From Myxococcota bacterium (GTDB taxonomy: Bacteria; Myxococcota_A; UBA796; JAJRTE01; JBJTQF01), in NCBI GenBank assembly GCA_046075485.1, contig JBJTQF010000024.1:2197-66196 (forward strand): a DNA stretch of 64,000 nt, written 5' to 3'. This document shows positions 1,316-47,143 of the stretch, piece by piece (positions within the stretch are counted from its first letter, which is position 1; each line of letters opens with the position of its first letter). The notes beneath the pieces are model-generated. The model was given only the letters and a program-made list of their open reading frames with translations, ran no database searches and had not been told where the DNA came from. A program made the position numbers and the translations under genes.

Positions 1316-1822
1316 TCATCCTTCGATCTCTTTGACGGCCAGTCGTGCCGGTTTTCCACCAAAGGAGACCGCCATAATGCCCGGAAGGTATCGATCCAAT
1401 GTCTGCACCGCTGGCGAAATGGCATTGCGGATCAGATTGGACGAGAGCGGCTCTCCTTCAAAGTCCAGCGCCGACTTAAAACGTACCTCTCCATCATCCA
1501 GATCCAGCTCAAAATTGCCAATTCGCATGGCATAGTTGGCACGGGTCACAAACTCCGCAACGGAGGCCCGGGCATGCTCCGGCACCTTCATCAGCGAGAC
1601 CGCATAAAAGATAAACTGCTCCAGATCCGCTCGAATCTGAGCGTAACAGCGGAACTCGCCATTTTGACCCGCAAACATCATACGATAGAGAAACCGCTCG
1701 GCATTGGCTTGGGGATGCCAGCCATCACTCTCCAAAAAAGCGCCCAGGGTCTCATAGGCACGCACGCCATTCTCTCGTACCTCAGCGGCCCGTCCGTTCG
1801 TGGAATTTTCATCGTTCGACAT
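1316..1822 (-). CDS. YbjN-domain protein (putative sensory-transduction/T3SS-chaperone-like family)
   Basis: The internal ATG at 1822 (MSNDENSTNG...) gives a 168-aa product with the YbjN-type pattern (FLYRMMFAGQNGEFRCYAQ...NYAMRIGNFELD...PLSSNLIRNAISPAVQTLDRYLPGI). The track's longer ORF extends N-terminally through the microsatellite and translates it as YAYAYA, which is implausible. Confidence 0.55.
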   Translation of the reverse strand: MSNDENSTNGRAAEVRENGVRAYETLGAFLESDGWHPQANAERFLYRMMFAGQNGEFRCYAQIRADLEQFIFYAVSLMKVPEHARASVAEFVTRANYAMRIGNFELDLDDGEVRFKSALDFEGEPLSSNLIRNAISPAVQTLDRYLPGIMAVSFGGKPARLAVKEIEG

Positions 1823-1960
1823 GCATTGACTCCTTGAAGCTCCAGCCGTTGCCAGCTCACATGAGAATTCTATTCCGGTGGACATTCTAACGGAGCCTCC
1901 GCAAGAGAACAGCAAAATCCTACCGGGTGAGTGCGGTTGTCCTTTGTCTCTCGCACACGC

Positions 1961-2034
1961 GCATACACGCATACACACATACGCATACGCATACGCATAC
2001 GCATACGCATACGCATACGCATACACGCATACAC
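1961..2034. repeat. Hexanucleotide microsatellite. (GCATAC)6 is perfect at 1983-2018, flanked by GCATACAC variants. It sits in the divergent intergenic region between the YbjN-like gene and the radical SAM gene.
   Basis: Direct read: gcatacac gcatacac acatac (gcatac)x6 gcatacac gcatacac. It produces the TH/YA/RM dipeptide-repeat artefact ORFs in all frames. Confidence 0.95.
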
Positions 2035-4850
2035 GCACGCGAGCCTGCGCTTCCCCACGGGGTTAAGCCTTGTGCTCGAGCGTGCATGGCCTTTCGTCCC
2101 TCACAAACTGCGAAATGGCTCACAGCTCCGACGTTTACAGGTGCTAAAGACACCCGCTGAGGGTATGATGAGCCCTTTTTTGAGAGGAGACTGCCATGCT
2201 GACGTCTGAAGTCACCACACGCTCAGATCGATATACCCCCCACTGTCTGCGCCGAGATGAGCTGGATCCCTTACTCGCGCGTGTGGAGCGCCCCGCACGT
2301 TATGCCGGAGGAGAGCTCAACGCGGTCGTCAAAGACCTCTCGACGGTGGAGCAGGTCTGGGCCTTCGCCTTCCCCGATGCCTATGATCTGGGCATGAACA
2401 ATATGGGCATGCAGATCCTGTATAATATCCTCAACCGCCAGGCGCACTTAGCCTGCGAGCGGGTGTTTGCGCCCTGGATCGATATGGAAGAGGTGATGCG
2501 TGCTCGCGGGGTGCCCCTGTTTACCCTCGAGAGCCGCCTGCGGGTACGCCATGCCGACGTGTTTGCCTTCACCATTCCTTATGAGATCATCTTGACGAAT
2601 GTGGTCAATATGATCGAGCTGGCAGGACTGCCGCTCTGGTCCAAAGATCGGGACGATTCATATCCCCTGGTGATTGGGGGTGGCGCCGTTGCCATGAATC
2701 CCGAGCCCATTGCCGACTTTTTTGACGCTTTTGTGGTCGGTGAAGGGGAAGAAGTGGTGCTCGACATCGCCCGGGTCATCTCGGAGAGCCGCGCCGCTGG
2801 TCTCGACAAAGGCGCGCTTTTGGAAGCCCTCTCCAAAGTCGAAGGACTGTATATTCCGGCCCTGTTTGAGCCTGAGTATCTCGACGATGGACGCATCAAA
2901 GCCATCCGCCCCCGAAAACCCAGCTACAAACGCACCCTTCGCCGCATTGTGGCCGACCTCGATGCCACCCCCTATCCGACAGCGCCGGTGGTGCCCTCCA
3001 TCAAGACCGTGCATGATCGGTATGCGGTGGAGATCTTCCGAGGGTGCATGGCAGGCTGCCGCTTCTGCCAAGCCGGTATGATCACCCGCCCCACCCGCGA
3101 ACGCAGCCCCGATACCGTGCTCAACATCATCGACGAGGCCATCAAAAACACCGGCTATCAAGATCTGTCGCTTAACTCGTTGTCGAGTGGTGACTATTCC
3201 TGCATCAACTCGCTGCTTAAGGCGGTCAATGCCCGCTACGAAAAAGAGCTGGTCTCCGTGTCGGTCCCCAGCCTGCGCGTGAAGACCCTCACCCCCGAAG
3301 TGGCGACTGAAGTGGCCCGCGTGCGGAAAGGGGGCTTTACCATCGCCCCCGAAGCGGGAAGCCAGCGGATGCGTGACGCTATTAATAAAGACGTGTCCGA
3401 TGCGGAAGTGGTGCGCACGGTGCAGACCATCTTCCAAAATGGCGGACAGTCCGTAAAGCTCTACTTTATGTGTGGTCTGCCCGGTGAGACCGACGAAGAC
3501 TTGGATGGTATTGTGCATCTGGGTGTGTTGGCCTATCAGACCGCTCGGCAGATTCACAATCGCCCTTCCATCACCGTTAATGTCTCGACCTTTGTGCCCA
3601 AGGTGTTTACGCCCTATCAGTGGGCCTCCCAGGTAAGCCGCGCCGAGACCCTGCGCAAACAAAAGTATCTGCTGGACAAGCTAAAGCCCTACCGTCACAT
3701 CACCTTCCGCTATCACTACGACTACTCCACCTTCTTGGAGGGCATCTTCAGTCGAGGAGATCGCCGACTGGCACGGCTGCTCGAGGTGGCACAACGCCTC
3801 GGTTGCCGCTTTGATGGCTGGCAAGAAGTGCTCAGCCCGCGCCGCTGGGAGCAGGTCTTTGAGGAAGCGGGGATCGATCCCCACGGGTATCTGCGCGCCC
3901 GGGAGCTGGACGAGGTCTTGCCCTGGGATCACATCGAAGCACGGGTCACCAAAAAATTCCTGAAGGGCGAGTGGCAGCGGCATCTGGAAGCCCTCACCAT
4001 TCCAGACTGTCGGTGGGGAACCTGCGCTCCTTGTGGAGCTTGCCACAAAGAGGTGAAGGTCACTACCTTCGATGGGCAGGATCCGCGACGCTCTATCGAT
4101 ATTCCGGCGGGAGAAGGGCGGACCTATCGTCATCCCGCCGTGCGTCTGCCGGACGTTGATGAGAGCTCGCCGAGTGTGTCCAATCCGGTGGTGCAGGTGA
4201 ATGCGCTGCCCTGGAAGCGGGTTCGGCTCCAGTTTACCCGTACCGGAGCGGCGCGTTTTGTGGGACATCTGGAGCAGAGTCAGATCTTTGTGCGGGCGTT
4301 ACGCCGCATGGGGCTTCAGCTTCGGGTCTCGGAGGGGTTCCATCCCCATCCGAAGATCCACTTCAGCAATCCGTTGCCCATCGGGGTGGAGAGCTGGGTG
4401 GAGTACGTGGATCTGGACATCGCTGAGGTCGGTGGGCCGGTGGCGCTGGACTGGCTGGTCTCGACGCTCAATGATCGCCAGCTCCCGGAGGGGATGGTGA
4501 TTGTCCGGGCGTTGGCACCTGATTTTCCCATCAATGGGCAAGAAAAGGTGATCTTCTCCGTTCAACTTCCGGTGGAGGTGGAGCCATTCACCCTTCAGCA
4601 GGCGGTGGCCGACTTTTTGGCTGCATCGGAGGTCTTGCTCAAAAAGAAGCGCCAGACCCTCAACGTGCGTCCGCTGGTCAACTGGATTCAGGTCCAGGAT
4701 CGGCAGGTGCGTTTTGAGATCTTGACCCCGGTGGAGGGCACACTCAAGGCGTCGGAGCTGGTGGGGCTGCTGGTGCCGTCGGTGGAAGCTGCCGACCTAC
4801 ACATCACCAAAGAGTCTTGTACCTTCCGGCAACTGCCCACGAAGACCTCC

Positions 4851-7609
<2,759 letters not shown>

Positions 7610-7673
7610 GCGCTTCTCCTTGGCTATGCGAAGGTTCAGCTCAGCGGAGGTCCGGCTGTATTGGCAGCGCCCC

Positions 7674-8846
7674 CTAATTCTGAACCTCTGGACTCTCCGA
7701 AGTAGACTCATCCTCTGCCTTATAATGGAGAGGTGAGCTGGGGATGGATCGGGAAGGTATATGTGTCACGTTCGGCAACCTATCCGCAATCTTGAGGAAA
7801 GCCTCCCAGATGCGCGGATCAAAGTGTGTACCGGCATCAAGCTGGAGTCGCTCAACGGCGTGGTGATGATCCATGGAGGGCTGATAAGGGCGGGCATGGG
7901 TCAGCGCGTCATAATTGTCGGCAAGGCTCATCAGCCGTGCTCCCAAAGGGATCTCCAGGCCAGCACGTCCGCGAGGATAACCCAACCCGTCCCAGCGTTC
8001 GTGATGGCTCGCTGCGATGTCGCGTGCGATGTATAACAGAGGACTGGGTTGCTCGAGCTCTGCAATGGCCCGCTCAATGGCTTGGGCTCCCAGCTCGCAG
8101 TGACGCTCCAAGAGCTGATGTTCTTCGTGGGTGAGGGGGCCACGCTTGGACACGATCTGGGCCGGGACCGCCACCATGCCGATGTCGTGCATGCCCGAAG
8201 CGAGGGTGAGCTCCTGCACATGGTCACGGAGGTGTGCGTCGGCAGGCCAGGGATTTTCAAAATAGCTGCGGGCGAGCATCTCCAGGAGGTTTGCACTGCG
8301 TGTTAGGTGTAAATAGCTGTCTGGATGCTGGATCTCGATCAAGCTCATGAGGGCTCGGAGGGTGACACGTTCGACCTGTTGCTCAAGGGACAATCGACGG
8401 GCGCTCTCGCTGGCCATTCGTGTACAATATTCCTGCACCAGCCGACGAAGACGCTCTTGCTCGAGATGCAGCTGAACTCGGTTCAGGAGCATGGCGGGAC
8501 GCACGGGCTTGGTGATATAGTCCACCGCACCGACGGCCAGACCTTTTTCTTCTTCTTCAGGTGAGTTCAGGGCGCTCACAAAAATGACGGGAATCTTCTG
8601 GGTGAGAGGATCACGCTGAAGGGCACCCAGCACGGCATAACCATCCATGTCGGGCATCATGATGTCGAGTAAGATCAGATCTGGAACGGGCGGGGAAAGG
8701 GCCACCTTCAGGGCGCGTGGGCCAGAATTCGCCACCCGAACGCGATAAAACTGTTTGAGCTGTGCCCCCAGAATGATCACATTCTCGGGAGTGTCATCCA
8801 CAAGTAGTATCGTCTGACGTGTGTCCTGTACGGAGGTCATCTCCAT
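7674..8846 (-). CDS. Response regulator with a C-terminal HD-GYP phosphodiesterase domain (RpfG-like)
   Basis: The receiver motifs ILLVDDTPEN...LILLDIMMPDMDG...KP are present. The HD-GYP signature is HDIGMVAVP...HHERWDGLGYPRG. The start could be 8858, 8846 or 8840; the chosen ATG has a GGGAG sequence just upstream. Confidence 0.8.
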   Translation of the reverse strand: MEMTSVQDTRQTILLVDDTPENVIILGAQLKQFYRVRVANSGPRALKVALSPPVPDLILLDIMMPDMDGYAVLGALQRDPLTQKIPVIFVSALNSPEEEEKGLAVGAVDYITKPVRPAMLLNRVQLHLEQERLRRLVQEYCTRMASESARRLSLEQQVERVTLRALMSLIEIQHPDSYLHLTRSANLLEMLARSYFENPWPADAHLRDHVQELTLASGMHDIGMVAVPAQIVSKRGPLTHEEHQLLERHCELGAQAIERAIAELEQPSPLLYIARDIAASHHERWDGLGYPRGRAGLEIPLGARLMSLADNYDALTHARPYQPSMDHHHAVERLQLDAGTHFDPRIWEAFLKIADRLPNVTHIPSRSIPSSPLHYKAEDESTSESPEVQN

Positions 8847-12283: not shown

Positions 12284-12763
12284 TCAATTGTTGGGGGCTC
12301 CAGCGTCAATCCAATCGATCACTGCTTGGAGGTACTCCGGCTCGATCTCTCCATCTGGCGGCATCTTGTCACCCACAATCCCTTCTGCATCCGTCAGCTT
12401 CTGAACCAAATAGCTGCTGGTCGCATCTCCCGGCTTGACCAGCATGAGCTCTGTGCGCTGCACGCTGGCGACGTTCACAATGCGGGTATACAGATCGGCT
12501 TCAGAAAAATCCAACCCCGTACTGGCACTCGAGCCCGCATGACAGCCGCTGAAATCACACGAGAGGGTCAACACTTTCTGCTCAACAAATTGGAAGGTCG
12601 GAGGTGTCTCCTCCGGTGTTGGACTGCTGCTGTCGTCTTCCGAGGTGTCACAGGCACTCAGACTCAACGTCGAGAGCAACATCCATGACACTAATTTGAG
12701 CTTCCCCTGTGCTGACCCTGATTGTCCTGACATTGACTGTGCTGACATTGACTGTGCTGACAT
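12284..12763 (-). CDS. Lipoprotein with a PSCyt1-type (planctomycete cytochrome c) domain carrying a CX4CH heme-binding variant. The functional start is probably an internal codon near 12682-12700.
   Basis: The sequence ..LTLSCDFSGCHAGSSASTGLDFSEADLYTRIVNVASVQRTELMLVKPGDATSSYLVQKLTDAEGIVGDKMPPDG fits the PSCyt1 profile (C..CH...GL.L......pG.p..S.L......MP). The signal/lipobox is LLSTLSLSAC-DTS. The first 20 codons (MSAQSMSAQSMSGQS) are encoded by the 15-bp tandem repeat. Confidence 0.5.
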   Translation of the reverse strand: MSAQSMSAQSMSGQSGSAQGKLKLVSWMLLSTLSLSACDTSEDDSSSPTPEETPPTFQFVEQKVLTLSCDFSGCHAGSSASTGLDFSEADLYTRIVNVASVQRTELMLVKPGDATSSYLVQKLTDAEGIVGDKMPPDGEIEPEYLQAVIDWIDAGAPNN

Positions 12764-12766
12764 TGG
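12706..12766. repeat. 15-bp tandem repeat GACATTGACTGTGCT. There are 2 perfect copies, 1 degenerate copy and 1 partial copy at the 5' end of the PSCyt1 lipoprotein gene. The unit is in frame (MSAQS), and each unit carries an ATG.
   Basis: Direct read of 12714-12766: gaccctgattgtcct gacattgactgtgct gacattgactgtgct gacattgg. Confidence 0.9.
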
Positions 12767-13536: not shown

Positions 13537-14049
13537 TCAGCCCTCCACCCGCGTCGGAGAGGCCACTCGCACACGAAATCCCCCCGGAAAATGCTGGGCC
13601 GACCACAATAACAAGGTCTCCGCTCTCAGCTCGGCAGGCAGCGCGAGCGAGGCAGGTAGCTGAAAGTGCATCAGATAGGTATGCTCCACGCCCGCCCGTA
13701 GTGCGGTCGCGCTCAGAGAAGGCTGTTCCACGTCCAAGGTGCTGAGCAAGTCTGGCAAGCGTTTTATGGCTCGATCAAACGCATCATCAACCGCTGGATC
13801 TGAGCTGGCAAGCCGAGGCAGGGACTGCGCTTGATGCGCCTGCTGCACCTCCTCCAGCACCCGCTGCACACTCGGCTGCTCCAGCGCACGAATCGGGAGC
13901 GTGCCCACCGTCTGCCGCAGCCACGTTAAGCTGCTCCGGGCCAAACGGGGCCCCAAGGTCCTGCTGCCTGGACACTCATTCGGAAGCACCTCCGAGGGCG
14001 AGGGATGCGCAGAGACCCCCTCCACTCCCACCAGGAAGATCAGGATCAT
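13537..14049 (-). CDS. Hypothetical protein (hydrophobic N-terminus MILIFLVGVEGVSAHP). It is in the same frame as the next ORF downstream and separated from it only by a TGA.
   Basis: The ATG at 14049 lies immediately 3' of a 4 x 18-bp tandem repeat. The product looks protein-like, with no recognisable domain. Confidence 0.35.
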   Translation of the reverse strand: MILIFLVGVEGVSAHPSPSEVLPNECPGSRTLGPRLARSSLTWLRQTVGTLPIRALEQPSVQRVLEEVQQAHQAQSLPRLASSDPAVDDAFDRAIKRLPDLLSTLDVEQPSLSATALRAGVEHTYLMHFQLPASLALPAELRAETLLLWSAQHFPGGFRVRVASPTRVEG

Positions 14050-14118
14050 CCAGTGTCGTAGTTACATCCAGTGTCGTAGGTACATCCAGTATCGTAGGTA
14101 CATCCAGTGTCGTAGGTA
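14047..14118. repeat. 18-bp tandem repeat CATCCAGTGTCGTAGGTA x4 (one T/G and one A/G variant). It begins exactly at the start codon of the 13537..14049 gene and extends upstream.
   Basis: Direct read: catccagtgtcgtagtta catccagtgtcgtaggta catccagtatcgtaggta catccagtgtcgtaggta. Confidence 0.9.
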
Positions 14119-14307
14119 CATTGGAAACTCATCGGGCTGAGGGCTCAAGCAAAGACATGTGTCACGCGAAAAATACGAAAAATGAAGCCATATCAGATAT
14201 ATAAGGCGGAAAGGGATGCACGCGGAGAGAGCAAATCCAGTCACACGGGATGACGGACGGCAGGATGACAACACAGAAGGGCGCGAAAAACGCCGCACAC
14301 ACTCCGC

Positions 14308-14346
14308 AACGGGTTACTCCAACGGGTTACTCCAACGGGTTACTCC
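14308..14346. repeat. 13-bp tandem repeat AACGGGTTACTCC x3, abutting the stop codon of the 14340..14840 gene
   Basis: Direct read: aacgggttactcc aacgggttactcc aacgggttactcc. Confidence 0.9.
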
Positions 14347-14840
14347 AGCCCTCGGGAGCGCCACAACTCACTGTGAACCAGAAACTCAAAGGTCAGGATC
14401 GGCCCCAGATAACCCACCACGCCCAGGGCGATATCATAGGGCAAGCCCGTATACAACACCGGCAGACGATTGGACTGCCACGCTTCCAGCGCCCGTAGGC
14501 CCAGCGCGCCCACCAAAACCGGCACCGCTCCCACAAGCGCCTGCGATAAGGGCCAGCGCGAACGTTTCCACAACCACCGATAGGTCGTGGCCACCATCAC
14601 CAACAGCCACGCACTCAGGAGCTGAATGCCCAGATTGAGCGGGAGCGGATTGTTCGGATCCGACCACTGCTCCGGGCTGTACACCAGGGCTCTTGCCACC
14701 ACCAGCTCCACAAAAACCATCAGGCCCGAGACCACCGCCAGACGCGCCGTGCGCCCAGGCCGATCCATCAGCACCGTTAAGGTCGTCAGCAGTGCCAGCA
14801 CCCCCACCGCCAATGGGATGTATGTCAGAAGCTGATCCAA
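14340..14840 (-). CDS. Small integral membrane protein of unknown function (4-5 TM)
   Basis: A 166-aa ORF with strongly hydrophobic segments (LAVGVLALLTTLTVL, VVSGLMVFVELVVA, LLSAWLLVMVATT, VGAVPVLVGALGL). No recognisable domain. Confidence 0.4.
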   Translation of the reverse strand: MDQLLTYIPLAVGVLALLTTLTVLMDRPGRTARLAVVSGLMVFVELVVARALVYSPEQWSDPNNPLPLNLGIQLLSAWLLVMVATTYRWLWKRSRWPLSQALVGAVPVLVGALGLRALEAWQSNRLPVLYTGLPYDIALGVVGYLGPILTFEFLVHSELWRSRGLE

Positions 14841-23614: not shown

Positions 23615-23642
23615 GCCGTGGTGAACCTTCATCAGAACAGAG

Positions 23643-23678
23643 ACACCCTCCGCCATCGGCTGAGGGTGTTTTTGTTTG
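23643..23678 (+). terminator. Rho-independent terminator of the FG-GAP/MopE gene
   Basis: An 8-bp perfect stem (ACACCCTC / GAGGGTGT) with a 12-nt loop is followed by TTTTTGTTTG, immediately after the stop at 23614. Confidence 0.6.
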
Positions 23679-23706
23679 GGGGCGGCGTAAAACGGAGAGG
23701 GCTTCC

Positions 23707-23797
23707 AGACCGGTATTCGTTCCAGACCGGTGTTCGTTCCATGCCGGTGTTCGTTCCAGGCTGGTGTTCGTTCCAGGCTGGTGTTCGTTCTAGGCCG
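23707..23797. repeat. 18-bp tandem repeat (consensus CCGGTGTTCGTTCCAGGC) x5 with point variants, lying between convergent gene ends
   Basis: Direct read: accggtattcgttccag accggtgttcgttccatg ccggtgttcgttccaggc tggtgttcgttccaggc tggtgttcgttctaggc. Confidence 0.85.
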
Positions 23798-23833
23798 GAG
23801 TCCTTGTGTGATGCGGGCATACGCGCGTGAGGC

Positions 23834-25969
23834 TCAGGCTTCTTGTTCGGGGGGATGGTACTCTCGCACCACCAGCAGGGAGGTGGGACATTCTTGGATC
23901 AGCAGCTCGGGACGCACGCCGAAGGGACGCTGAGGCAGGCCCCATTCTTCTCCCACCCCGATGATCACCAGATCGTAGCCGGTGCTGGCTTCTTCCAGCA
24001 CACTCTCGAGGGGATCCGGATGACGCAGCACCTTGAGCTCCACTGGACCCCGTCCGTGCTCCGCCGGTTGTTCAAAGATCTCCAGCGTGGGATGCCGTGT
24101 GGTTTCGTCGGGATTCAGCACCCGCTCGGGCTCCACGATGTGCAGCACCACCACATGCGCGCCGGTCGAGGTGTGGAGCTGATGGGCCAGCTTGAGGGCT
24201 GCACGATCATGGGGGCTCTTATAATACGGCACCAGCACCCGCTTGACCTGCACCAGCCCCCGATCAATGAGCACCGCCACGTTGGTACGGGCGGCTTGCA
24301 TCACATCGTAGACCGTTCCGCCCAGCACGGTCTGGCTGAGCACGGGCTTATGCCATCCCAGCAGGACCAGATCGGCCCCTTTCACTTTTGCCACGTTACA
24401 GATGTCTTCTGCCGGAGATGCGGAGACAAATGACAGCGGTCTCACCTCCAAGCCCAGAGTGGCTGCCCGCTCGAGCAGGGGCTTAAAGCCAGCCGACGCC
24501 TGCTCCGCCACCGAGTCGGAGTTGAGATAAAACGAAGTGCGGTCGGTGGGCACCACGAGCTGGAGGGCGTAAAGTCTCGCACGCGCCTGACCTTCGCCGC
24601 TGAGCGCACGGGCCAACAAGACCATGCTGGGCCCCGAGCCTGAATAGGCCACACACATCAGCAGGGTAAAGTTGGAGGGTGTTGGCTGTGGAGTCTGTTT
24701 GTCCTCCGCTTCCAGCAAGGCTTTGGTCTGAAGCTCGGGTGGATAGATCCAGCGCAGCAGCGGCGTGGTGATCACCGTGGTGAAGAGGGCCATCAGCACC
24801 ATCATGGTGAATACTTTGGGGGTGATCACCCCCAGATCGAGCCCGATGTTGAGCACGATCAGCTCCATCAGTCCCCGGGTATTCATCAGCACCCCGATGG
24901 CACTGGATTCTCGCCAGGGAATGCCGGTCAGCCGCGCTGCCAGGGTGCTTCCGCCAAATTTTCCCACACAGGCCAAGAAGATGATGCCTGCACACACCAG
25001 CCAGTCTTGTGGTTCGTTGAGCAGTCCCACATGCGTGCGTAAGCCACTGTAAGCAAAAAAGAGGGGCAGCAGCAGCACCACCACAAAGTCTTCGAGCTTT
25101 TCGGTCAGCGCCTCGGAGAAACCGCCCTGACGAGGCATGATCGCCCCAAACAAGAACGCACCAAAGAGCGCGTGGATGCCGATCAGCTCCGTGGCCATCG
25201 CCGAGAGCAGCAGCAGCAGAAAAGTCACCGCCACTGCATTTTGCGTCAGGCTCTCGCGGGAGCTGGTCCGAGCCGCCAGCCTTGCCAAAAAGGGCCGCAC
25301 CACGGCCCACATCACCGCGATATACCCCAGCGCCAGCAGGGTGGTCCACACCGCCTGCATCACCCCCGCCGAGCGCACAATGGACACCACAAACGCCAAC
25401 AAACACCACGCGGTCACATCGTCTACCGCCGCACAGGTGATAGCCAGAGCCCCCACTCGAGTCTGGAGAAGCTGCCGCTCACTCAAGATACGCGCGAGCA
25501 CTGGAAACGCGGTGATGGACATGGCCGCCCCCATAAAGAGGGCAAAGGAGGTAAAAGGTACGTCCGGGCTGGCCATCGATGGATAGATCAGGTAGGCCAG
25601 CGTTCCGCCGAGGGCAAACGGGACCGCAATGCCCGACTGACTAATCGCCACCGAGCTTTTGCCCAACCCCTTGAGCAGGTTGATATCAAGCTCCAGCCCG
25701 ATCAAAAACATAAAGAAGGTCAGCCCAAGCTGACTGACCAGTCCCAGCACCGGCATTGACGAAGGCGGAAAAATAAGCGCGGCTTGCTCTGGAAAAAGCC
25801 AGCCCAAAAGGGAGGGCCCCAGTAGAATGCCCGCCGCCACTTCCGCGATGACCAGCGGCTGGTTGATGCGCTTGGCCACCAATCCCAGAATTCGGGCAAG
25901 TCCCACCACCATGATTGCCTGAATAAAAAACAGCGGGAGTGGACCGTGGGCAACCAACGCTTGGATCAT
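23834..25969 (-). CDS. CPA2-family monovalent cation:proton antiporter (Kef/NhaP-like) fused to tandem universal stress protein (UspA) domains
   Basis: A GGGAG RBS sits 7 nt before the ATG at 25969 (MIQALVAHG...). The CPA2 signature AGILLGPSLLG is present, with about 12 TM helices. The C-terminal ~280 aa carry two USP-like modules (VLVPYYKSPHDRAALKLA...VVVLHIV; DLVIIGVG). The track ORF begins at an upstream TTG (26038). Confidence 0.75.
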   Translation of the reverse strand: MIQALVAHGPLPLFFIQAIMVVGLARILGLVAKRINQPLVIAEVAAGILLGPSLLGWLFPEQAALIFPPSSMPVLGLVSQLGLTFFMFLIGLELDINLLKGLGKSSVAISQSGIAVPFALGGTLAYLIYPSMASPDVPFTSFALFMGAAMSITAFPVLARILSERQLLQTRVGALAITCAAVDDVTAWCLLAFVVSIVRSAGVMQAVWTTLLALGYIAVMWAVVRPFLARLAARTSSRESLTQNAVAVTFLLLLLSAMATELIGIHALFGAFLFGAIMPRQGGFSEALTEKLEDFVVVLLLPLFFAYSGLRTHVGLLNEPQDWLVCAGIIFLACVGKFGGSTLAARLTGIPWRESSAIGVLMNTRGLMELIVLNIGLDLGVITPKVFTMMVLMALFTTVITTPLLRWIYPPELQTKALLEAEDKQTPQPTPSNFTLLMCVAYSGSGPSMVLLARALSGEGQARARLYALQLVVPTDRTSFYLNSDSVAEQASAGFKPLLERAATLGLEVRPLSFVSASPAEDICNVAKVKGADLVLLGWHKPVLSQTVLGGTVYDVMQAARTNVAVLIDRGLVQVKRVLVPYYKSPHDRAALKLAHQLHTSTGAHVVVLHIVEPERVLNPDETTRHPTLEIFEQPAEHGRGPVELKVLRHPDPLESVLEEASTGYDLVIIGVGEEWGLPQRPFGVRPELLIQECPTSLLVVREYHPPEQEA

Positions 25970-26326
25970 GAGCAGGCTCCCGTGGTGTGAACGGAAGAAG
26001 CGAAAGAAATCAAGACATGCAAGAGGTAGCAGGATCAAAAGCTGGTGTCAATCTCCCAGTCCGATTTGAGTGAGACATTGACATATGAATAATATAGAAC
26101 GATCTGACTGTGATGTCCGTGAGCGCGTTTTTTGTTGCTAGAAGCTCACACCCGTGTGCCAACAGACCCCTTCGGTCAACAGCGGGCCTTCCATCCCTCA
26201 AAAGCCCCTCCCACACGCAGCGATAAAATCCCGCGTACCTCAAAAAAATTGTAGTTTACCTTACAGAACCTTCTTGAGCTTCGTCCAGACTTACGTTACA
26301 AACCAGCCATCTGCTAAAGGAGACGT

Positions 26327-31906: not shown

Positions 31907-32043
31907 TCAGTCCCTCGCGGGCGCGTGAGTGCCCACGGAGGCGCGTTCGGCGTGCGTGCGTGACTTGCTCTTGACAGGACGGCATGCTAGACTGCCCGGG
32001 CTTTAGTTCTCGTCTTTTATCCCCTAAGATCGTGAGGAGTCCT

Positions 32044-33909
32044 GTGAGCAGGTTCATCGAAGAACTCAAACGCACCCACCGGTGCGGGGCGCTCCGTGAA
32101 GAGCATATCGGTCAAGAAGTGGTCTTGTTTGGGTGGGTTCATAGCCATCGAGATCACGGTAACTGCATCTTCATCGACCTGCGAGACCGTGAAGGTCTGG
32201 CCCAGATCGTCTTTGATCCGCAGATCAGCCCCGAGAGTCACGCACTGGCGGAGTCCATGCGCTCGGAGTGGGTGATTGGCATTCGTGGGCGGGTGCGAGA
32301 TCGAGGCACCATGCGCAACCCCCGTCTTGCCACGGGTGCGGTTGAAGTGGCGGTGCTCGAGGCGGTGGTCTTCAACAAGGCCCTCACCCCTCCTTTCCAG
32401 ATCGAAGACAGCGTGCGCACTGGCGAAGAGCTGCGCCTGGAGTATCGATATCTGGACTTGCGGCGTCCTCGGCTTCAGCAGACCCTGATGACCCGCAGCA
32501 AGATCAACCAGGTGACGCGGCGCTATTTTGACGAAACCGGATTTTTGGAGCTTGAGACGCCCTTTTTGGTGAAATATACCCCAGGCGGCGCGCGCAACTT
32601 CTTGGTTCCTTCCCGCATTCATGCCGGGAAGTTTTACGCGCTCGCCGAGAGCCCACAGCTCTACAAGCAGCTCTTTATGGTGGCGGGTTTTGACCGGTAC
32701 TTCCAGATCGTGCGCTGCTTCCGAGACGAAGACCTGCGCTTGGATCGCCAGCCGGAGTTTACGCAGATCGACGTCGAGATGTCATTTGTCAACCAAGACG
32801 ACATCTTCCGCCAGATCGAAGGGCTGATCTTTAAGCTGTGGCGCGAAGTGCTGGGGGTGGAGCTGCTGGACTTGTATCCCTCCGGGCGGTTCCCCCAGAT
32901 GCCGTTTGCAGAGTCGATGGACAAGTATGGCAACGACAAGCCGGATCTCCGGTTTGGTATGCAGCACATCGACCTGACGGACCTGACCATTGAACATGAC
33001 GGGGGTGGCATCCCGTTTCTTGTACCGATTGCCGAGAAGTTCAAAAAAGGCACCTATCGCCGCGATCTTCCACAGGAAATCGTCAAGGCCCTGGTGGTGC
33101 CCGCAGACGCCAACTTCTCAAGGACGGAGGCCGACAAGCTGGAAGATTTTGTCAAGGGCATGGGCGCAAAGGGGCTCGCGCGGGCGAAGGTCGCCCCGGA
33201 TGGCACTTGGACTCAGTCTCCGCTGGCTAAGAGTGTCACCGACAGCTTCCGCTTGGCCGTGAATGCGGCGACCGGCGCAAAGCCAGGCGATCTGATCCTC
33301 TTCCAGTTTGGCAAAGAGTCACTGGTGCAGACAGTGATGGCCAACCTCCGCCTGCACTTGGGGAAAAAGCTGGGGTATATCCCCGAGAGTGGACATGGTG
33401 GCAAGTGGCAGTTCCTGTGGGTGGTAGCACCGCCGCTCTTTGAGTGGGATGAGGAGCGGAATGTGTGGGCAGCGGCCCATCATGCTTTCACCCGCCCGTA
33501 TGACGAAGACGTCTCCCTCGTGGACACCGATCCGGGCAAGGTGCGCTGCTATCGCTACGACGTGGTGCTCAACGGCTTTGAGCTGGGTGGTGGGAGTGTG
33601 CGCTTGCACGACCCCGATGTGCAGGCCAAAGTCTTTAAGGCGATGGGCATCAGCGACGAAGAGGCTCAAGAGAAGTTCGGCTTCCTGCTGAAAGCCTTGC
33701 GGCACGGCGCGCCTCCGCATGGTGGCATCGCCCTCGGCATGGATCGGGTGTGTATGCTCGCCACCGGCTCGGAGTCCTTGCGCGATGTGGTGGCCTTCCC
33801 CAAGACCCAGAAGGGGACGTGTTTGATGACCGATGCGCCCAATCCGGCTCCCGCGACCATGCTCAAAGACCTTCATATCAAGTCGGTGGTGGGCACTCAG
33901 GGGAGCTGA
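32044..33909 (+). CDS. aspS: Aspartate--tRNA ligase
   Basis: The GTG at 32044 follows a GAGGAG sequence (the track's longest ORF starts at 31984). Motifs are the OB-fold anticodon-binding region (VVLFGWVHSHRDHGNCIFIDLRDREG) and class II motifs 1-3 (FQIVRCFRDEDLRLDRQPEFTQID; GGGSVRLHD; GGIALGMDRV). Confidence 0.9.
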   Translation: MSRFIEELKRTHRCGALREEHIGQEVVLFGWVHSHRDHGNCIFIDLRDREGLAQIVFDPQISPESHALAESMRSEWVIGIRGRVRDRGTMRNPRLATGAVEVAVLEAVVFNKALTPPFQIEDSVRTGEELRLEYRYLDLRRPRLQQTLMTRSKINQVTRRYFDETGFLELETPFLVKYTPGGARNFLVPSRIHAGKFYALAESPQLYKQLFMVAGFDRYFQIVRCFRDEDLRLDRQPEFTQIDVEMSFVNQDDIFRQIEGLIFKLWREVLGVELLDLYPSGRFPQMPFAESMDKYGNDKPDLRFGMQHIDLTDLTIEHDGGGIPFLVPIAEKFKKGTYRRDLPQEIVKALVVPADANFSRTEADKLEDFVKGMGAKGLARAKVAPDGTWTQSPLAKSVTDSFRLAVNAATGAKPGDLILFQFGKESLVQTVMANLRLHLGKKLGYIPESGHGGKWQFLWVVAPPLFEWDEERNVWAAAHHAFTRPYDEDVSLVDTDPGKVRCYRYDVVLNGFELGGGSVRLHDPDVQAKVFKAMGISDEEAQEKFGFLLKALRHGAPPHGGIALGMDRVCMLATGSESLRDVVAFPKTQKGTCLMTDAPNPAPATMLKDLHIKSVVGTQGS

Positions 33910-42519: not shown

Positions 42520-44478
42520 TTACTGACCCGGTTTGATCTCGGTCTTCTTCTCGACCCCTTGTGGGGTGGTGGTCTCGGTGGAGGTCTTCTCGATCACATG
42601 GGTCTCGACGGGTTTGCCGTCCAGCTCAATGATGGTGAAGACCACGCGGCGGTTCTGCTCCTTACCTTTGGCGGTGGCATTGTCGGCCACGGGTTTGGTC
42701 TCGCCATAACCCACGGCCACCAGGCGGCTGGCATCGACGCCGAGGTTGACCAAGAACTTGACCACCTCATTGGCGCGGCGCTGGCTCAGCTCGAGGTTGG
42801 AGGCATCATCGCCGACGTTGTCGGTGTGGCCTTCGACGCGGATCTTGGTGATCTCCGGGTTGGCTTTGATGATCAGAGCCACTTGACGGAGCAAGCCAAA
42901 GCTGCGGGTCTGAATGGAGTCCTTACCCGTGTCGAAGTAGACCTTCTCCAAGATCTCCACGCGGTCTTTGGTCACTTGGACCAAACTCTTGCCTTCATCG
43001 GGGCAGCCGTCTTCGTCTTTATTTCCGTTGATGGTCTCCGGTTTACGCGGACACTGATCGGCGGCGTCTTTGATGCCGTCCTTATCGAAGTCATCTTCGG
43101 GGCAGCCGTCTTCGTCGCCGAGTCCGTCTTTATCTTCGGCGAACATCGGGCACTTATCATCCTTGTCGAGCACACCGTCGCCGTCGTTGTCGGGATCTTC
43201 GCAGCCATCGTTGTCGGCTACGTTGTCGCGGTCTTCCAGGGAGTCGGGGCACTTATCGTCTTTGTCGAGCACACCGTCGCCGTCGTTGTCTGGATCGTCG
43301 CAGCCGTCTTCATCCTTGAAGCCGTCTTTGTCTTCAGGCTGATCCGGGCACACGTCCATGCTGTCCAAGATGCCATCTTGATCGTTGTCGGGATCGGAGC
43401 AACCATCTTGATCCTGGAACTTATCCTTGTCCTCAGCTTCTTTCGGGCAGGCATCGTCCTTGTCGATGATGCCATCACCGTCGGTATCTTTGGGCGGTGC
43501 TTTGGCAGCGGGGGTGAGCGAATAACCCACGAAGAACCGGAACGTCGGCGTTCCATATCCTTCTGAGAGCCCCGGTCCCACACCCACTGTCAGCGCATGG
43601 GCGGGCATGGGGGTCAAGCGTGCGGCGATATTGGCCTCCAGCGGCACGAGCTGGGCGGCATACTCTCCGTTGTTTTCTGCATCGAGCTGTGCCGTGGTGT
43701 CGGCATCCACCCCTGCCTTGCCAAAGAGCTCGGCCAGCAGGGTCACTTTTTCGGGCATCAGGGCATATGCGGCACCCAGACCGAAGCTCAGCTCATTGCC
43801 GATGGGGAGGGTGTACAGGTCGGCATCGGTGCGCAGCACGTAGCCCACATTGGCACCCACTCGCACCTTCTCGGTGGTGTACTCCAGCAGCAGACGCGGC
43901 TCGATGGTGAGGTTGCCATTGCCTTCAAAGCTCAGCTTATCGCCGGTGGGCAGGCCAAACTGACCTTCCAGGCCCACGTTCAGGCCCTTATCCTCGGGCT
44001 TGAGCAGGTGCGCACGCGCGTGAAGGCGCACATCCCCCACGGTGCTGCTGGCGTAAGAAGGGGGTGGGAAAAACCCTTCTGAATCGACGACTTGAAGCAG
44101 AGAGACGGGCAGGGCGAGCCCCAGTTGTAAGCGGTTGAAGAGGCCCAAGCTGGCGACCAAGTCCGCTGCAAGGTGAGGGCCGACCAGTGCTTGCTCCAGA
44201 TCTCCGGCTGTGCTGGTGGCCACCAACGGGCGATGGCCATAGTTGAGCCACAGTCCTGCGGACGGTTGCAGATGCTTAAGTGTCGAAGCACCGGACACAT
44301 GGTTAAAGTTCAGCGTGGTGCCACCGGTCGGCTGAAACTGCTGAATGCTCACATTTTCGTATGGCACCGTCTGGGCCAGCAAAGGCAGAGGGCTGGTCAA
44401 GGCCAGACATGCACCGGCCAGGATCATTGATTTGCGTGTCATGTTCATCCTCTTGGCTTGGAGAGGTTGCGGCTGCAC
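42520..44478 (-). CDS. OmpA-family outer-membrane protein. It has an N-terminal beta-barrel, a central run of thrombospondin type 3 (TSP3) calcium-binding repeats, and a C-terminal OmpA peptidoglycan-binding domain.
   Basis: The signal peptide is MILAGACLALTSPLPLLAQT. TSP3 units are DTDGDGIIDKDDACP, DQDGCSDPDNDQDGILDSMDVCP, DEDGCDDPDNDGDGVLDKDDKCP (twice) and DEDGCPEDDFDKDGIKDAADQCP. The OmpA motif is RVEGHTDNVGDDASNLELSQRRANEV. Confidence 0.8.
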   Translation of the reverse strand: MQPQPLQAKRMNMTRKSMILAGACLALTSPLPLLAQTVPYENVSIQQFQPTGGTTLNFNHVSGASTLKHLQPSAGLWLNYGHRPLVATSTAGDLEQALVGPHLAADLVASLGLFNRLQLGLALPVSLLQVVDSEGFFPPPSYASSTVGDVRLHARAHLLKPEDKGLNVGLEGQFGLPTGDKLSFEGNGNLTIEPRLLLEYTTEKVRVGANVGYVLRTDADLYTLPIGNELSFGLGAAYALMPEKVTLLAELFGKAGVDADTTAQLDAENNGEYAAQLVPLEANIAARLTPMPAHALTVGVGPGLSEGYGTPTFRFFVGYSLTPAAKAPPKDTDGDGIIDKDDACPKEAEDKDKFQDQDGCSDPDNDQDGILDSMDVCPDQPEDKDGFKDEDGCDDPDNDGDGVLDKDDKCPDSLEDRDNVADNDGCEDPDNDGDGVLDKDDKCPMFAEDKDGLGDEDGCPEDDFDKDGIKDAADQCPRKPETINGNKDEDGCPDEGKSLVQVTKDRVEILEKVYFDTGKDSIQTRSFGLLRQVALIIKANPEITKIRVEGHTDNVGDDASNLELSQRRANEVVKFLVNLGVDASRLVAVGYGETKPVADNATAKGKEQNRRVVFTIIELDGKPVETHVIEKTSTETTTPQGVEKKTEIKPGQ

Positions 44479-44497: not shown

Positions 44498-47143
44498 TTA
44501 CGCCTGGGCCCCACGAGAGGTGCGGCGGCGGCGAGAAATCAGCCCCAGCAGACCAGCCACCAGCGCAAAGGTGCCTGTGCTGCTCCCCGAGTTTGCTCCT
44601 GTCATCGAGCAGCCAGTTCCCTGGATGACCAGGGCGTCATATGGCAGCTCATCACACTCATCCCCCAAGCCATCCTGATCCGAGTCGTATTGATCGGGGT
44701 TGGAGACATCACGGCAGTTATCTTCCGCTGCCAGCACGCCATCTTGATCGGCGTCGTCGTCGGTATCGTCGCAGACATTGCCTTTCCCGTCACCGTCGTC
44801 GTCGGCCTGATCTGCATTGCTGTTGAGCGGGCAGTTGTCGTCTTCGTTGGCGATCTTGTCACCATCGATATCCCCATCGCAGGCATCTCCGAGGTTATCT
44901 CCATCGACGTTGCCTTGATCGGTGTTGCTGAGGCTGGGGCAGTTGTCATCCGCATCCACAATCGTGTCATTATCGTCATCAGCATCGCAGGCATCCCCCT
45001 TGCCATCACGGTCGAGATCCTTTTGATCGACGTTCTTGACCGTCGGGCAGGTATCCACACTGTCGAGCACGCCGTCGTTGTCGCTGTCGAGGGCATCAAT
45101 GGTGCCGTCATCGTCAGAGTCCGCTGCTTCGTTGCCACCGCCATACTCTGCCAGGTCAGAGAGACCATCTTCATCCGTATCGTCCACAAACGGGTCCAAG
45201 TTTGCTTCATACTCGGTGGTATTGTCCAGCCCATCTTCGTCGGAATCGAAGGTCGAGCTGTCATCTACCCAGCCATCGCAGTCGTCGTCTTTGCCGTTTT
45301 CGCGCTCGGTCGCATCCACGTTGATGGCGGCATCTTCGTCATCGCAGTCATTTCCGCCCAGCGCGCTACAGTCGGCTGCTGACAAAAATCCATCGTCATC
45401 GCTGTCGAAGTTTTCGTCAATTGCTTCGTCACAGTCTTGGTCGATGCCATCGCAAATTTCCTGTTCTAGCGGACTGATTTCGGGGTTCAGGTCGTCGCAG
45501 TCTGCCACATCCACCGAGCCATCATTGTCGTCATCGGCATCCACACAGTCCGCATACGGATCGTCGTCGAAGTTGGAGAACCCTTCATCCACATTGTTGT
45601 CACAGTCGTTGTCGATGTCATCGCAGCTCTCGGTGGCACCTGGATAGGCTGCGTCAGAGGCGTCATTGCAGTCGGTCTGGCCAATCGGATTGCATACCGT
45701 GGAGATCGGGAATCCATCTTGATCAGAATCGGTCGCATCCACCATGCCATCGCAGTTGTTGTCCAGCTTGTCGCCGCAGACCTCGGTGGCTCCTGGTTTG
45801 GTGCTGGCCTCGCTGTCATCGCAGTCTCCTTGCACCTCGGTGAAGCCGTCTCCATCGTTGTCCACCTCCAAACAGCTCAGATCGCCGCCGGAGCAGTTTT
45901 GATCGATGCCATCCCCACAAATTTCAGCCACGTTGGGCGAGATTTTGCCATCTCGGTCGTTGCAGTCGCCGCCGTTTTCGCTCACCCCGTCCCCGTCGTT
46001 GTCTTGATCGGCGCAGCTTAGGTCGGCCCCGGAGCAGTCTTGGTCGATCAGATCGCCACAGGTCTCCGGTGCGCCCGGATAGATGCTGTTGCTGAGATCG
46101 TTGCAGTCTCCTTCGCCGATGGTGAAGCCATCGCGGTCGGAGTCCCCCACTTCGCAGACGGCGTCTCCGCCAGAGCAGTTGTCATCCAGGAGGTTGCCAC
46201 AGATCTCGGTTGCGCCCGGATGCACGGCATTGTTGGAGTCATTGCAGTCCGTTCCGCTGGCACCACCGGGATAACCATCGTTGTCGAGGTCGTTGAGATC
46301 CGCGCCTGAGCAGTCCTGATCGATGCCATCGTAAGGCACTTCGGCGGCCCCGTCAAAGATGGTGATTTCGTCGTCGTTGCAGTCACCTTCGGCTGCTGTT
46401 TGGCCATCACCATCGTTGTCATAGGGGACGCAGCCCAGCGCGGTGCAGAGCAGATAGTCCGAGATGCTGTCTTCAATCCGGGTGCTGGTGCCGTTGAGCA
46501 GGTCGCGGGAGAGGGTATTGACCAGCTCCGTGGTGCCAAACACAAACCGCAAGGGTCTGGCAATATCCACTTGGGTATAACCCAGCTCGCGGAGCGGAAT
46601 GGCCCAGTCCACAAAATAGTCCGCATCACCGTTGATGGAGCTGTCCGCCAGCTCCACCCGCGCATGTTTGCTTGCCACAAATGAGGCAATAAAGCTCTCA
46701 GACAGATCCCGTGGCGAATTTGGCGTGGCTTGGATCAGATTCTCGTATAGCTCCACCTGATCAGGAGAGGCAAACCCGTTGAGGGTGGCAATCGCTTCGT
46801 AATCGTCGGAGTCCTTATCTCCGTCGAACTCCACGCCCCAGCCGTAGTCGTTAAAGTTGGTGCTCGAGAGCTGGGGATCGGCATCCAAGCGCATGCGAAA
46901 GTACAAAAAGTCGGCATCCCGATAGGCGTAAACGCTGGGTGCGCTGGAGCTGCCCACAATGTCGCGGTGATCGACATAGTCGCCGGTCACATCGGTGAGG
47001 GGTTGTCCTTTGTGGGTCAGCGGTTCCCAATCCTCATCTTGCGCCGGAAAGGCAGGCAGCGCATGTGCCGCATTGGGGAGCCAGGCCATCACGCCCACGG
47101 AGGCCCCCATCAGGGCCGATAAAGCAACATTTCTTTTCATCAT
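44498..47143 (-). CDS. Large secreted repeat protein. It has an N-terminal globular domain, then MopE-type Cys-rich repeats, then TSP3-like repeats, and ends in a MYXO-CTERM sorting signal.
   Basis: The signal peptide is MMKRNVALSALMGASVGVMAWLPNAAHA. Repeats include CNDDEITIFDGAAEVPYDGIDQDCSG and CDGIDQDCDEAIDE, followed by DNCPSLSNTDQGNVDGDNLGDACD and DNCRDVSNPDQYDSDQDGLGDECDE. The C-terminus is GTGCSMTGANSGSSTGTFALVAGLLGLISRRRRTS. Confidence 0.7.
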   Translation of the reverse strand: MMKRNVALSALMGASVGVMAWLPNAAHALPAFPAQDEDWEPLTHKGQPLTDVTGDYVDHRDIVGSSSAPSVYAYRDADFLYFRMRLDADPQLSSTNFNDYGWGVEFDGDKDSDDYEAIATLNGFASPDQVELYENLIQATPNSPRDLSESFIASFVASKHARVELADSSINGDADYFVDWAIPLRELGYTQVDIARPLRFVFGTTELVNTLSRDLLNGTSTRIEDSISDYLLCTALGCVPYDNDGDGQTAAEGDCNDDEITIFDGAAEVPYDGIDQDCSGADLNDLDNDGYPGGASGTDCNDSNNAVHPGATEICGNLLDDNCSGGDAVCEVGDSDRDGFTIGEGDCNDLSNSIYPGAPETCGDLIDQDCSGADLSCADQDNDGDGVSENGGDCNDRDGKISPNVAEICGDGIDQNCSGGDLSCLEVDNDGDGFTEVQGDCDDSEASTKPGATEVCGDKLDNNCDGMVDATDSDQDGFPISTVCNPIGQTDCNDASDAAYPGATESCDDIDNDCDNNVDEGFSNFDDDPYADCVDADDDNDGSVDVADCDDLNPEISPLEQEICDGIDQDCDEAIDENFDSDDDGFLSAADCSALGGNDCDDEDAAINVDATERENGKDDDCDGWVDDSSTFDSDEDGLDNTTEYEANLDPFVDDTDEDGLSDLAEYGGGNEAADSDDDGTIDALDSDNDGVLDSVDTCPTVKNVDQKDLDRDGKGDACDADDDNDTIVDADDNCPSLSNTDQGNVDGDNLGDACDGDIDGDKIANEDDNCPLNSNADQADDDGDGKGNVCDDTDDDADQDGVLAAEDNCRDVSNPDQYDSDQDGLGDECDELPYDALVIQGTGCSMTGANSGSSTGTFALVAGLLGLISRRRRTSRGAQA

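Follow-up and report, generated by a model that had tools for sequence, protein, structure and literature searches.

Why does a tandem array of the hexamer GCATAC stand between two divergently transcribed bacterial genes, and does its copy number matter to either of them? We addressed this question for one such array in a 64,000-nucleotide stretch of DNA from a Myxococcota bacterium, referred to here as the window. The original prediction was that the array is prone to slippage and could act as a contingency-type element that alters promoter spacing for either of the genes.

The repeat lies between a ybjN-like gene and a radical-SAM gene

The array is situated in a 373-nt intergenic region (1823-2195). 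Its neighbours are as predicted, a YbjN-family gene on the minus strand and a radical-SAM gene on the plus strand, transcribed divergently.

1316..1822, minus strand: YbjN-family gene, 168 aa (PF10722, E=2.8e-13)
1830..1835, minus strand: Shine-Dalgarno-like AAGGAG of ybjN, by direct sequence reading
2196..4937, plus strand: TIGR03960-type B12-binding radical-SAM gene fused to DUF2344, 913 aa (Pfam)

Shine-Dalgarno-like sequences precede both genes. The radical-SAM ORF contains the Pfam domains Radical_SAM_N2, Radical_SAM and DUF2344, and the homologues of this gene carry the name TIGR03960 family. In two relatives (loci L024 and L031), an aconitase gene follows next after ybjN on the same strand. 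The products of ybjN and the radical-SAM gene are cytoplasmic and housekeeping-like, and they are not of the surface or restriction-modification type.

Identical copies of the window's YbjN protein were found on three Logan contigs, and an exact-protein look-up of the window's radical-SAM protein returned no record. When GTDB species representatives were scanned with the radical-SAM protein, the best match was 44% identical and no close relative was found; a protein search with the N-terminus of the same protein returned only relatives at ≤54% identity and no further tract alleles. Named homologues of YbjN, at ~60% identity, come from Chloroflexota, but an assignment of the window to that phylum was rejected on the evidence of AspRS. 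The AspRS encoded in the window is 100% identical to a Myxococcota MAG protein, followed by proteins from Polyangiaceae and Labilithrix at ~70-72%. The window also encodes OmpA-TSP3, MopE/FG-GAP, MtsC-like and AmpG proteins, and a histidine-kinase gene nearby appears disrupted in the window assembly.

The hexamer is the core of a 90-nt alternating tract

The hexamer array is only the centre of a larger alternating regularity. Positions 1952-2041 form 90 nt of unbroken pyrimidine-purine alternation, (YR)45, which is the full extent of the feature. The 45 dimers comprise 15 CG, 19 CA and 11 TA steps.

1952..2041, no strand: alternating tract, the longest YR run in the 64-kb window and its dominant predicted B-Z site
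1978..2024, no strand: microsatellite core (CATACG)7.8, equivalent to (GCATAC)7 at 1983-2024, the slippage-prone part (TRF)

TRF reported CATACG x7.8 at 1978-2024 with 100% matches and a score of 94, together with a broader imperfect array of 12-nt period at 1973-2040. Perfect copies of GCATAC start at 1961, 1969, 1983, 1989, 1995, 2001, 2007, 2013, 2019 and 2027 (n=10); seven of the ten are contiguous (1983-2024) and the other three are separated by AC or ACACATAC spacers. The hexamer repeat is therefore where it had been placed, with a core of 7.8 copies at 100% matches. The count of six perfect and about five variant copies given at the outset was roughly right, although it was an undercount of the perfect ones.

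The tract is a rarity in the window. The second-longest YR run in the 64-kb window is 20 nt, as against 90 nt in the tract, and the maximal YR runs in 30 Markov-1 simulations of the window were 13-19 nt. With up to one mismatch allowed, (GCATAC)2 occurs seven times in the window and every occurrence is inside the tract; the expectation in dinucleotide-preserving shuffles is 0.06, and none of 100 shuffles reached seven. Like a bacterial SSR or LSSR, the tract has a head-to-tail unit of 1-11 nt repeated beyond chance length. Z-DNA-forming sequences are recognized by alternation over at least about 8-12 bp with the anti-syn register kept, and here the alternation extends over 90 bp with no break.

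Several other identities were considered for this sequence and rejected. With regard to a structured RNA, the whole window had no Rfam match at the gathering score, and the miRNA matches in a permissive intergenic scan (mir-297, mir-466 etc.) were sub-threshold hits to models built from animal TG/TA repeats. A hairpin or cruciform was dismissed as the single strands fold no better than shuffles (z-scores +2.3 and +0.2). Terminal inverted repeats, flanking direct repeats and a target-site duplication, as would mark a mobile element, were all absent. Nor is the sequence coding, as the ORFs running through it are repeat artefacts with products of the type (His-Thr)n, (Tyr-Ala)n or (Arg-Ile)n.

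Tandem repeats elsewhere in the genome

Four other tandem-repeat tracts had been noted in the window and had led to the suggestion of a genome-wide trait. All four were found.

12707-12765: array at the 5' end of a lipoprotein-like ORF
14047-14121: array adjoining a start codon
14307-14347: array at the 3' end of a gene
23703-23798: array beyond a terminator-like hairpin, between convergent genes

These four strong arrays are minisatellites at gene boundaries, with unrelated units of 13-18 nt, and are neither hexamers nor RY tracts. TRF arrays scoring ≥50 number nine in the window, or 1.41 per 10 kb, compared to 0.57 per 10 kb in 19 unrelated bacterial loci and 0-1 per window in Markov-2 simulations. 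The suggestion of a genome-wide trait thus stood only in a loose sense. Array density is above the controls, but the other arrays are unrelated minisatellites, and a search of the 64-kb window and of about 80 kb of same-genus DNA gave no further long RY run. The genome looks rich in tandem repeats, though not specifically in hexamers or alternating tracts. The occurrence of such a tract in a single intergenic region of the sampled DNA speaks against a general design principle. A 17-mer array is missing from the congener introduced below, and exact-protein look-ups for the array-adjacent genes 13537-14049 and 23834-26038 found none on record.

The motif itself is common in environmental DNA, where (GCATAC)≥5 was found on more than 120 metagenome contigs. 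These are mostly eukaryote-like, and the environmental arrays are often embedded in alternating runs of 100-260 nt. A small number of prokaryote-like contigs have 5-7 copies of GCATAC (e.g. L110).

The tract varies far more than its flanks

Other loci were recovered from public assemblies by exact-protein look-ups and grouped by their nucleotide identity to the window. L001 and L002 represent a second strain of the species found in the window (98.2%), L023 and L166/L167 a sister species (about 90-92%), and L031 and L172 a congener (about 81%). The sample accessions of the contigs carrying ybjN and of those carrying AspRS are consistent with these identity-based groupings. The locus occurs in samples SRR29270176, ERR14789953 and ERR14822409 in the case of the window's species, and in SRR25694608, SRR23950805, SRR23950810, SRR23950811, SRR23950819, SRR25694593, SRR31724231 and SRR31724233 in that of the sister species.

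Within the species, the flanks of the tract are 99.6% identical on the ybjN side and 98.7% on the radical-SAM side, while the tract itself is 77.8% identical. The tract of the other strain is 12 nt shorter than that of the window, and the alignment of the two contains 7 transitions, 1 transversion and 12 gap columns, with gaps of even length only. The longest pure unit run in the other strain (L001) is 2-3 units. Since the window has a pure core of 7.8 copies that the other strain lacks, these alleles point to a recent expansion. A further contig, L003, ends within the tract and matches 53 nt of the window allele and its flank exactly.

At the same position, the sister species has a distinct tract of ~125 nt with GTGCGT-type units (TRF). 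This tract is imperfect, being interrupted by GA steps that fall out of the alternation and leave pure runs of 27-37 nt at the longest. In the sister species, eight contigs, each from a different sample, displayed at least four different right-hand tract ends next to almost invariant flanks, and seven of the eight start inside the tract. The congener has the gene order of the window, with histidine kinase, radical SAM and the divergent ybjN and aconitase, yet its intergenic region of 282 nt is tract-free and has a longest YR run of 7 nt. The ybjN loci at greater distance (L035, L156-L165) show neither this gene order nor a tract.

Related genomes therefore differ more in the tract than in its flanks, as is characteristic of polymorphic bacterial SSRs. 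The expectation that the tract would be prone to rapid change was borne out, with 12 nt and 8 substitutions separating the two strains and at least four alleles among the eight sister-species samples. Judging from these alignments, the tract is real, lineage-specific and young, and it mutates far more readily than the DNA around it.

In a MAG, the collapse, expansion or chimeric joining of low-complexity sequence during assembly could in principle mimic such a tract. Assemblers do struggle here, since 8 of the 11 short-read contigs that enter the locus from the ybjN side stop within the tract, and the apparent disruption of the adjacent histidine-kinase gene could be taken as another sign of misassembly. 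However, the exact match of L003 to the window's tract and flank is independent, L001 and L002 span the variant tract and L023 spans that of the sister species, and the pure core of 47 nt is below typical read length. Because assemblies made independently from other samples also have a tract at this site, it is not an artefact of assembly, and we regard an artefactual origin as extremely improbable. The contig breaks inside the tract are compatible with allele heterogeneity and also with k-mer repeats.

Candidate promoter elements lie outside the tract

A sigma-70 consensus scan of 1700-2320 gave zero matches, so the promoter positions proposed here come from phylogenetic footprinting alone. 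The footprinting included three lineages, namely the window, the sister species and the congener.

1884..1889, minus strand: candidate ybjN -10 element TAGAAT, by conservation, TSS presumptive
1910..1915, minus strand: candidate ybjN -35-like element TTGCTG, by conservation of TTTTGCTGT
2100..2195, plus strand: conserved putative radical-SAM promoter/leader block, with TTTACA at 2134-2139, TATGAT at 2164-2169 and the Shine-Dalgarno sequence GAGAGGAG at 2182-2189

In the sister species and the congener, the -10-like box of ybjN reads GTTAGAATG / TGTAAGATG and is thus conserved, and TAnAAT-like boxes are found at a similar distance from the start codon in distant ybjN orthologues. TTTTGCTGT is kept in the window, L023 and L031, and its 20-nt spacing to the -10-like box, although non-canonical for a -35/-10 pair, is identical in all three. 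On the other side, the block at 2100-2195 matches the sister species at 92.8% identity and the congener at 85.3%, unlike the intergenic centre, which is unalignable across lineages. Conservation in the sister species extends to CTGCGCTTCCCCACGGGGTTAAGCC (~2045-2069), which borders the tract on the radical-SAM side, whereas the sequence adjoining the tract on the ybjN side shows no conservation between species.

One edge of the tract is 36 nt from the ybjN -35-like TTGCTG and the other is 92 nt from the radical-SAM TTTACA; the two -35-like hexamers are 218 nt apart. The tract thus appears to lie between both candidate core promoters and upstream of each. Since the conserved promoter-like elements are outside the tract, it would be unable to alter a -35/-10 spacer. 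A change in copy number would lengthen or shorten the spacer between the promoters in 6-bp steps and would leave both -35/-10 spacers unaffected. At most, the tract would shift the distance between the two putative promoters or that from a promoter to a more distal site. Measured against the window, the inter-promoter distance of the other strain is shorter by 12 nt and that of the congener by about 91 nt, whereas that of the sister species is longer by about 95 nt. A distance so variable among close relatives is not tightly constrained.

These positions speak against the proposal that the repeat alters promoter spacing, as the candidate elements are beyond its edges on both sides. In a switch of the hif type, the repeat constitutes the -35/-10 spacer of overlapping divergent promoters, and here the candidate elements are separate from each other and outside the tract. 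With regard to a contingency-type element, the tract lies outside ORFs and outside the candidate -35/-10 spacers, with the TSSs being presumptive, and the gene classes are atypical of contingency loci, comprising the YbjN family, with aconitase downstream, and a TIGR03960/DUF2344 radical-SAM protein.

There is another way in which copy number could act, as in the nadA gene, namely by changing how far a distal regulator site on one side of the tract is from a core promoter on the other, or their helical phase. Each 6-bp unit would rotate the flanks by ~206 degrees with respect to each other, which may result in graded or periodic expression of ybjN-aconitase or of the radical-SAM gene. The tract is distal to the candidate promoters, as is the TAAA tract of nadA (PMC2791445), and the conserved CTGCGCTTCCCCACGGGGTTAAGCC (about 2045-2069) could be an operator, but no operator or regulator was identified at the locus and across species the ybjN side of the tract shows no conserved sequence. 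The pure core of 7.8 copies exceeds the length at which slippage becomes frequent and strains do carry different alleles; yet the alleles differ in complex ways, by many substitutions and not just by whole units, and both genes are kept in relatives despite shifts of -12, about +95 and about -91 nt in the inter-promoter distance. The neighbouring genes are outside the surface and restriction-modification classes, and the host is an environmental Myxococcota rather than a host-adapted pathogen. We consider it distinctly unlikely that the tract operates in this manner.

The tract is predicted to be the dominant Z-DNA-prone site

The propensity of the tract to adopt Z-DNA was estimated with published B-Z energies (PMC3024258) of 0.7 kcal/mol per CG dimer, 1.3 per CA/TG dimer and 2.5 per TA dimer, with 5 kcal/mol per junction. 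Conversion of the whole 90 bp was computed to cost ~62 kcal/mol plus 10 for the two junctions, and this flip would take up about 16 superhelical turns. In a two-state estimate, the onset of the transition was at a sigma of about -0.035 if the domain is large and of about -0.05 if it measures 5 kb. In a window-wide scan at a sigma of -0.045, the tract was favourable by 21 kcal/mol and all other sites in the 64 kb by ≤0.8. At the same sigma, the values were 17.5 kcal/mol for the allele of the other strain and 36.7 for the tract of the sister species, and the congener had nothing comparable. The tract is thus predicted to be by far the dominant Z-DNA-prone site in the 64-kb window. The predicted onset is within total superhelicity and near or beyond the typical unconstrained level in vivo, such that the transition would need transcription-driven supercoiling.

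These estimates raise the possibility that the tract is selected as a sink for supercoils, in which its flip to Z-DNA absorbs up to ~16 negative turns and thereby decouples or tunes two supercoiling-sensitive promoters, while slippage adjusts the capacity. Genomic Z-susceptible sites "rarely exceed 6 or 7 dimers" (PMC10783518), and this tract has 45. It is located between divergent promoters, where simultaneous transcription piles up negative superhelicity (PMC10783518), and it is by far the dominant candidate for a flip in the window, with a predicted onset at a sigma of about -0.035 to -0.05. The sister species retains the Z-propensity with another unit, but its tract is full of GA steps that break the alternation and the pure runs are 27-37 nt at the longest. 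As a precedent, a B-Z transition at a distance inhibited a promoter of E. coli that depends on supercoiling (Sheridan, Benham and Hatfield 1999, as cited in PMC10783518). On the other hand, the congener has the same gene pair and conserved promoter blocks with no tract between them, and no comparable tract was found in other divergent regions of the sampled DNA. Unconstrained supercoiling in vivo may also fall short of the B-Z onset value, which counts against such a sink, and the alternation is explicable by slippage and transition bias in the absence of selection. A selected role of this kind is in our judgement unlikely.

Discussion

We somewhat favor the interpretation that the tract is a young, slippage-driven and lineage-specific microsatellite with no dedicated function, that is, a neutral or structural by-product. 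We infer that replication slippage enlarged an alternating purine-pyrimidine seed in a permissive spacer between the putative divergent promoters. Gains and losses of 2-6-nt units, along with transitions, would then drive the evolution of the tract and keep the alternation automatically, at a divergence roughly 20 times that of the flanks. As unit changes of 2 or 6 nt and an excess of transitions preserve the alternation, perfect alternation alone needs no selection. The one strong physical feature of the tract is its exceptional predicted propensity for Z-DNA, and a flip under the supercoiling of divergent transcription may add to the instability of the tract and could incidentally buffer both promoters. 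In bacteria, repeats that form Z-DNA are unstable (PMC12776410). The tract-free congener with the same promoters, the interrupted tract of the sister species and the failure to find a second such tract in the sampled DNA all argue against an indispensable function. The tract most probably has little or no selected regulatory function.

Some observations do not fit easily with a neutral by-product. An alternation of 90 nt across unit variants, and a Z-propensity kept with a different unit in the sister species, are what would be expected of selection at the level of structure. In addition, the spacer between divergent promoters is the site of peak transcription-driven negative supercoiling (PMC10783518). 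Alternating RY tracts and SSRs are generally under-represented or counter-selected in prokaryotic genomes (PMC4060949), which makes the persistence of the tract across a speciation event noteworthy. One could combine these points into a selected, self-tuning Z-DNA "capacitor", in which slippage would set the supercoil capacity and the coupling of both genes. Its signature would be the Z-propensity kept with a different unit in the sister species and the placement of the tract at the peak of negative supercoiling. If true, this would be a contingency locus that works through DNA topology instead of promoter geometry or reading frame. On the modelled energies and these positions, we view such an arrangement as very unlikely.

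Of the original prediction as a whole, the hypermutability has stood while the promoter-spacing switch has not, and the tract is not a demonstrated genetic switch. The tract is of interest on other grounds. Native bacterial chromosomal sites with such strong predicted Z-potential are rare, and the natural alleles of varied length and composition are a ready-made series for testing chromosomal Z-DNA and promoter effects. If functionless, the tract offers a clean case of the birth, expansion and turnover of a microsatellite in a free-living Myxococcota genus. It also carries a practical warning, namely that short-read assemblies break at tracts of this type.

How does the tract compare with known systems? 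Free-living bacteria sporadically have long SSRs with units of 5-11 nt (Mrazek, Guo and Shah 2007; summaries in PMC4679880 and PMC11868660). The tract resembles these LSSRs in being an above-chance hexamer array that is intergenic and strain-polymorphic, in an environmental bacterium whose genome is probably large. The tract differs from them in that the unit and all its variants hold strict alternation over 90 nt and in its unusually strong predicted Z-propensity; the genome of the window lies outside the 2007 survey. The motif is identical to that of eukaryotic (GCATAC)n / (GT)n-type microsatellites, but the copy in the window is between two bacterial genes on a gene-dense bacterial contig.

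The (TAAA)n tract of Neisseria meningitidis nadA modulates expression via operator spacing (PMC2791445). Both tracts are SSRs situated distally upstream of a core promoter, here a candidate one, and in both a change in units shifts the spacing of the flanking DNA. In nadA, mapped NadR operators and an IHF site flank or overlap the tract, switching was measured at ~4e-4 and the target is a surface adhesin, whereas the tract in the window is known from its sequence alone and has a unit of 6 nt instead of 4 nt. In Haemophilus influenzae, as reportedly described by van Ham et al. in 1993, a (TA)n repeat forms the -35/-10 spacer of the overlapping hifA and hifB promoters and its copy number turns them on or off. 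The tract shares with that repeat an alternating sequence within a divergent promoter region, but its candidate -35/-10 elements are 36 nt and 92 nt outside of it.

Rahmouni and Wells are said to have studied a Z-DNA-forming insert near an E. coli promoter in 1989. Like such inserts, the tract is an alternating sequence upstream of one or more promoters that is predicted to flip under transcription-driven supercoiling and to absorb superhelical energy. The E. coli inserts were (CG)n or (CA)n on plasmids, while the tract is a native chromosomal mix of CG, CA and TA steps that is costlier per dimer. The tract belongs to two known classes, the long SSRs of bacteria and the Z-DNA-prone tracts, of which it is an unusually long example.

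Conserved sequence between the main tract and the radical-SAM gene

The intergenic sequence upstream of the radical-SAM gene contains a block of about 95 nt (2100-2195), immediately before the start codon, that is 92.8% identical in the sister species and 85.3% identical in the congener. This is approximately the level of conservation of coding sequence, while the remainder of the intergenic region could not be aligned. The block has the non-canonical layout TTTACA-N24-TATGAT as well as a complementary pair, GGCTCA (2117-2122) with TGAGCC (2169-2174), and a search of Rfam returned no match for it. The block could represent a promoter with an operator, or it could be a short structured leader.

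Between this block and the main tract, the sequence at 2045-2069 (CTGCGCTTCCCCACGGGGTTAAGCC) adjoins the tract on its radical-SAM side. Its loosely palindromic form and its conservation in the sister species make it a possible protein-binding site. At 2071-2073, within a short stretch of alternating sequence 30 nt away from the main tract, two strains differ at three neighbouring bases (TGT versus CAC), each time by a transition.

Tandem repeats in the window and in environmental DNA

Tandem arrays detected by TRF are about 2.5 times as dense in the window as in unrelated bacterial loci. Besides the main tract there are four minisatellites with unrelated repeat units, located at gene boundaries or in intergenic sequence.

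Minisatellites in the window
12707-12765, 15-mer, 3.9 copies
14047-14121, 18-mer, 4.2 copies
14307-14347, 13-mer, 3.2 copies
23703-23798, 17-mer, 5.6 copies

The 15-mer array extends into the 5' end of a lipoprotein-like ORF, where it is read in frame as SAQSM repeats ahead of an LSAC lipobox. The 18-mer array adjoins the ATG of the ORF at 13537-14049. The 17-mer array follows a terminator-like hairpin (23641-23672) between two convergent genes, and the congener at about 81% identity (L172) lacks it.

The ends of short-read (Logan) contigs fell repeatedly inside tandem-repeat tracts (L024-L030, L003 and L166). At the main tract, 8 of the 11 Logan contigs start or stop within it, and the sister-species contig L166 starts within an 11-mer array (CCCTTCGGTGG, 2.7 copies) near the equivalent of window position 26.0-26.2 kb. 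Tract lengths taken from such assemblies should therefore be read with caution.

Tracts of at least five GCATAC copies are a widespread environmental microsatellite (metagenome contigs L036-L155). They often lie within alternating runs of 100-267 nt, on contigs with about 45% GC and low coding density that probably derive from microbial eukaryotes. A few gene-dense, high-GC contigs carry 5-7 copies directly upstream of a gene start, as at 8748-8788 of L110.

Genes in the window

In the window, the hybrid PAS/HisKA/HATPase/REC histidine kinase (4851-7711, minus strand) is broken up into two or more overlapping ORFs (5767-7341 and 4851-5819); the sister species and the congener each encode it in a single uninterrupted ORF, 1061-1065 aa long. 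The window copy lacks positions 22-66 of the HisKA profile and 1-48 of HATPase_c. The split ORF and these missing positions suggest a pseudogene with an internal deletion and a frameshift, or else an assembly error.

The YbjN-family protein (1316-1822) and aspartyl-tRNA synthetase (AspRS, 31984-33909) were compared with loci L031 and L172. In the congener, where DNA identity is about 81%, amino acid identity is 74% for the former versus 96% for AspRS; in the sister species the values are 96% versus 99%. The YbjN-family protein is evolving unusually fast. Its closest named homologues are from Chloroflexota, whereas the genome is from Myxococcota.

A 99-nt coding repeat (2.5 copies, 43102-43351) lies inside the ORF at 42520-44478 (minus strand). 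Its product consists of Asp-rich, thrombospondin type-3-like repeats within an OmpA-family protein, and the neighbouring ORF (44498-47143) is similar to MtsC, a MYXO-CTERM cohesion protein.
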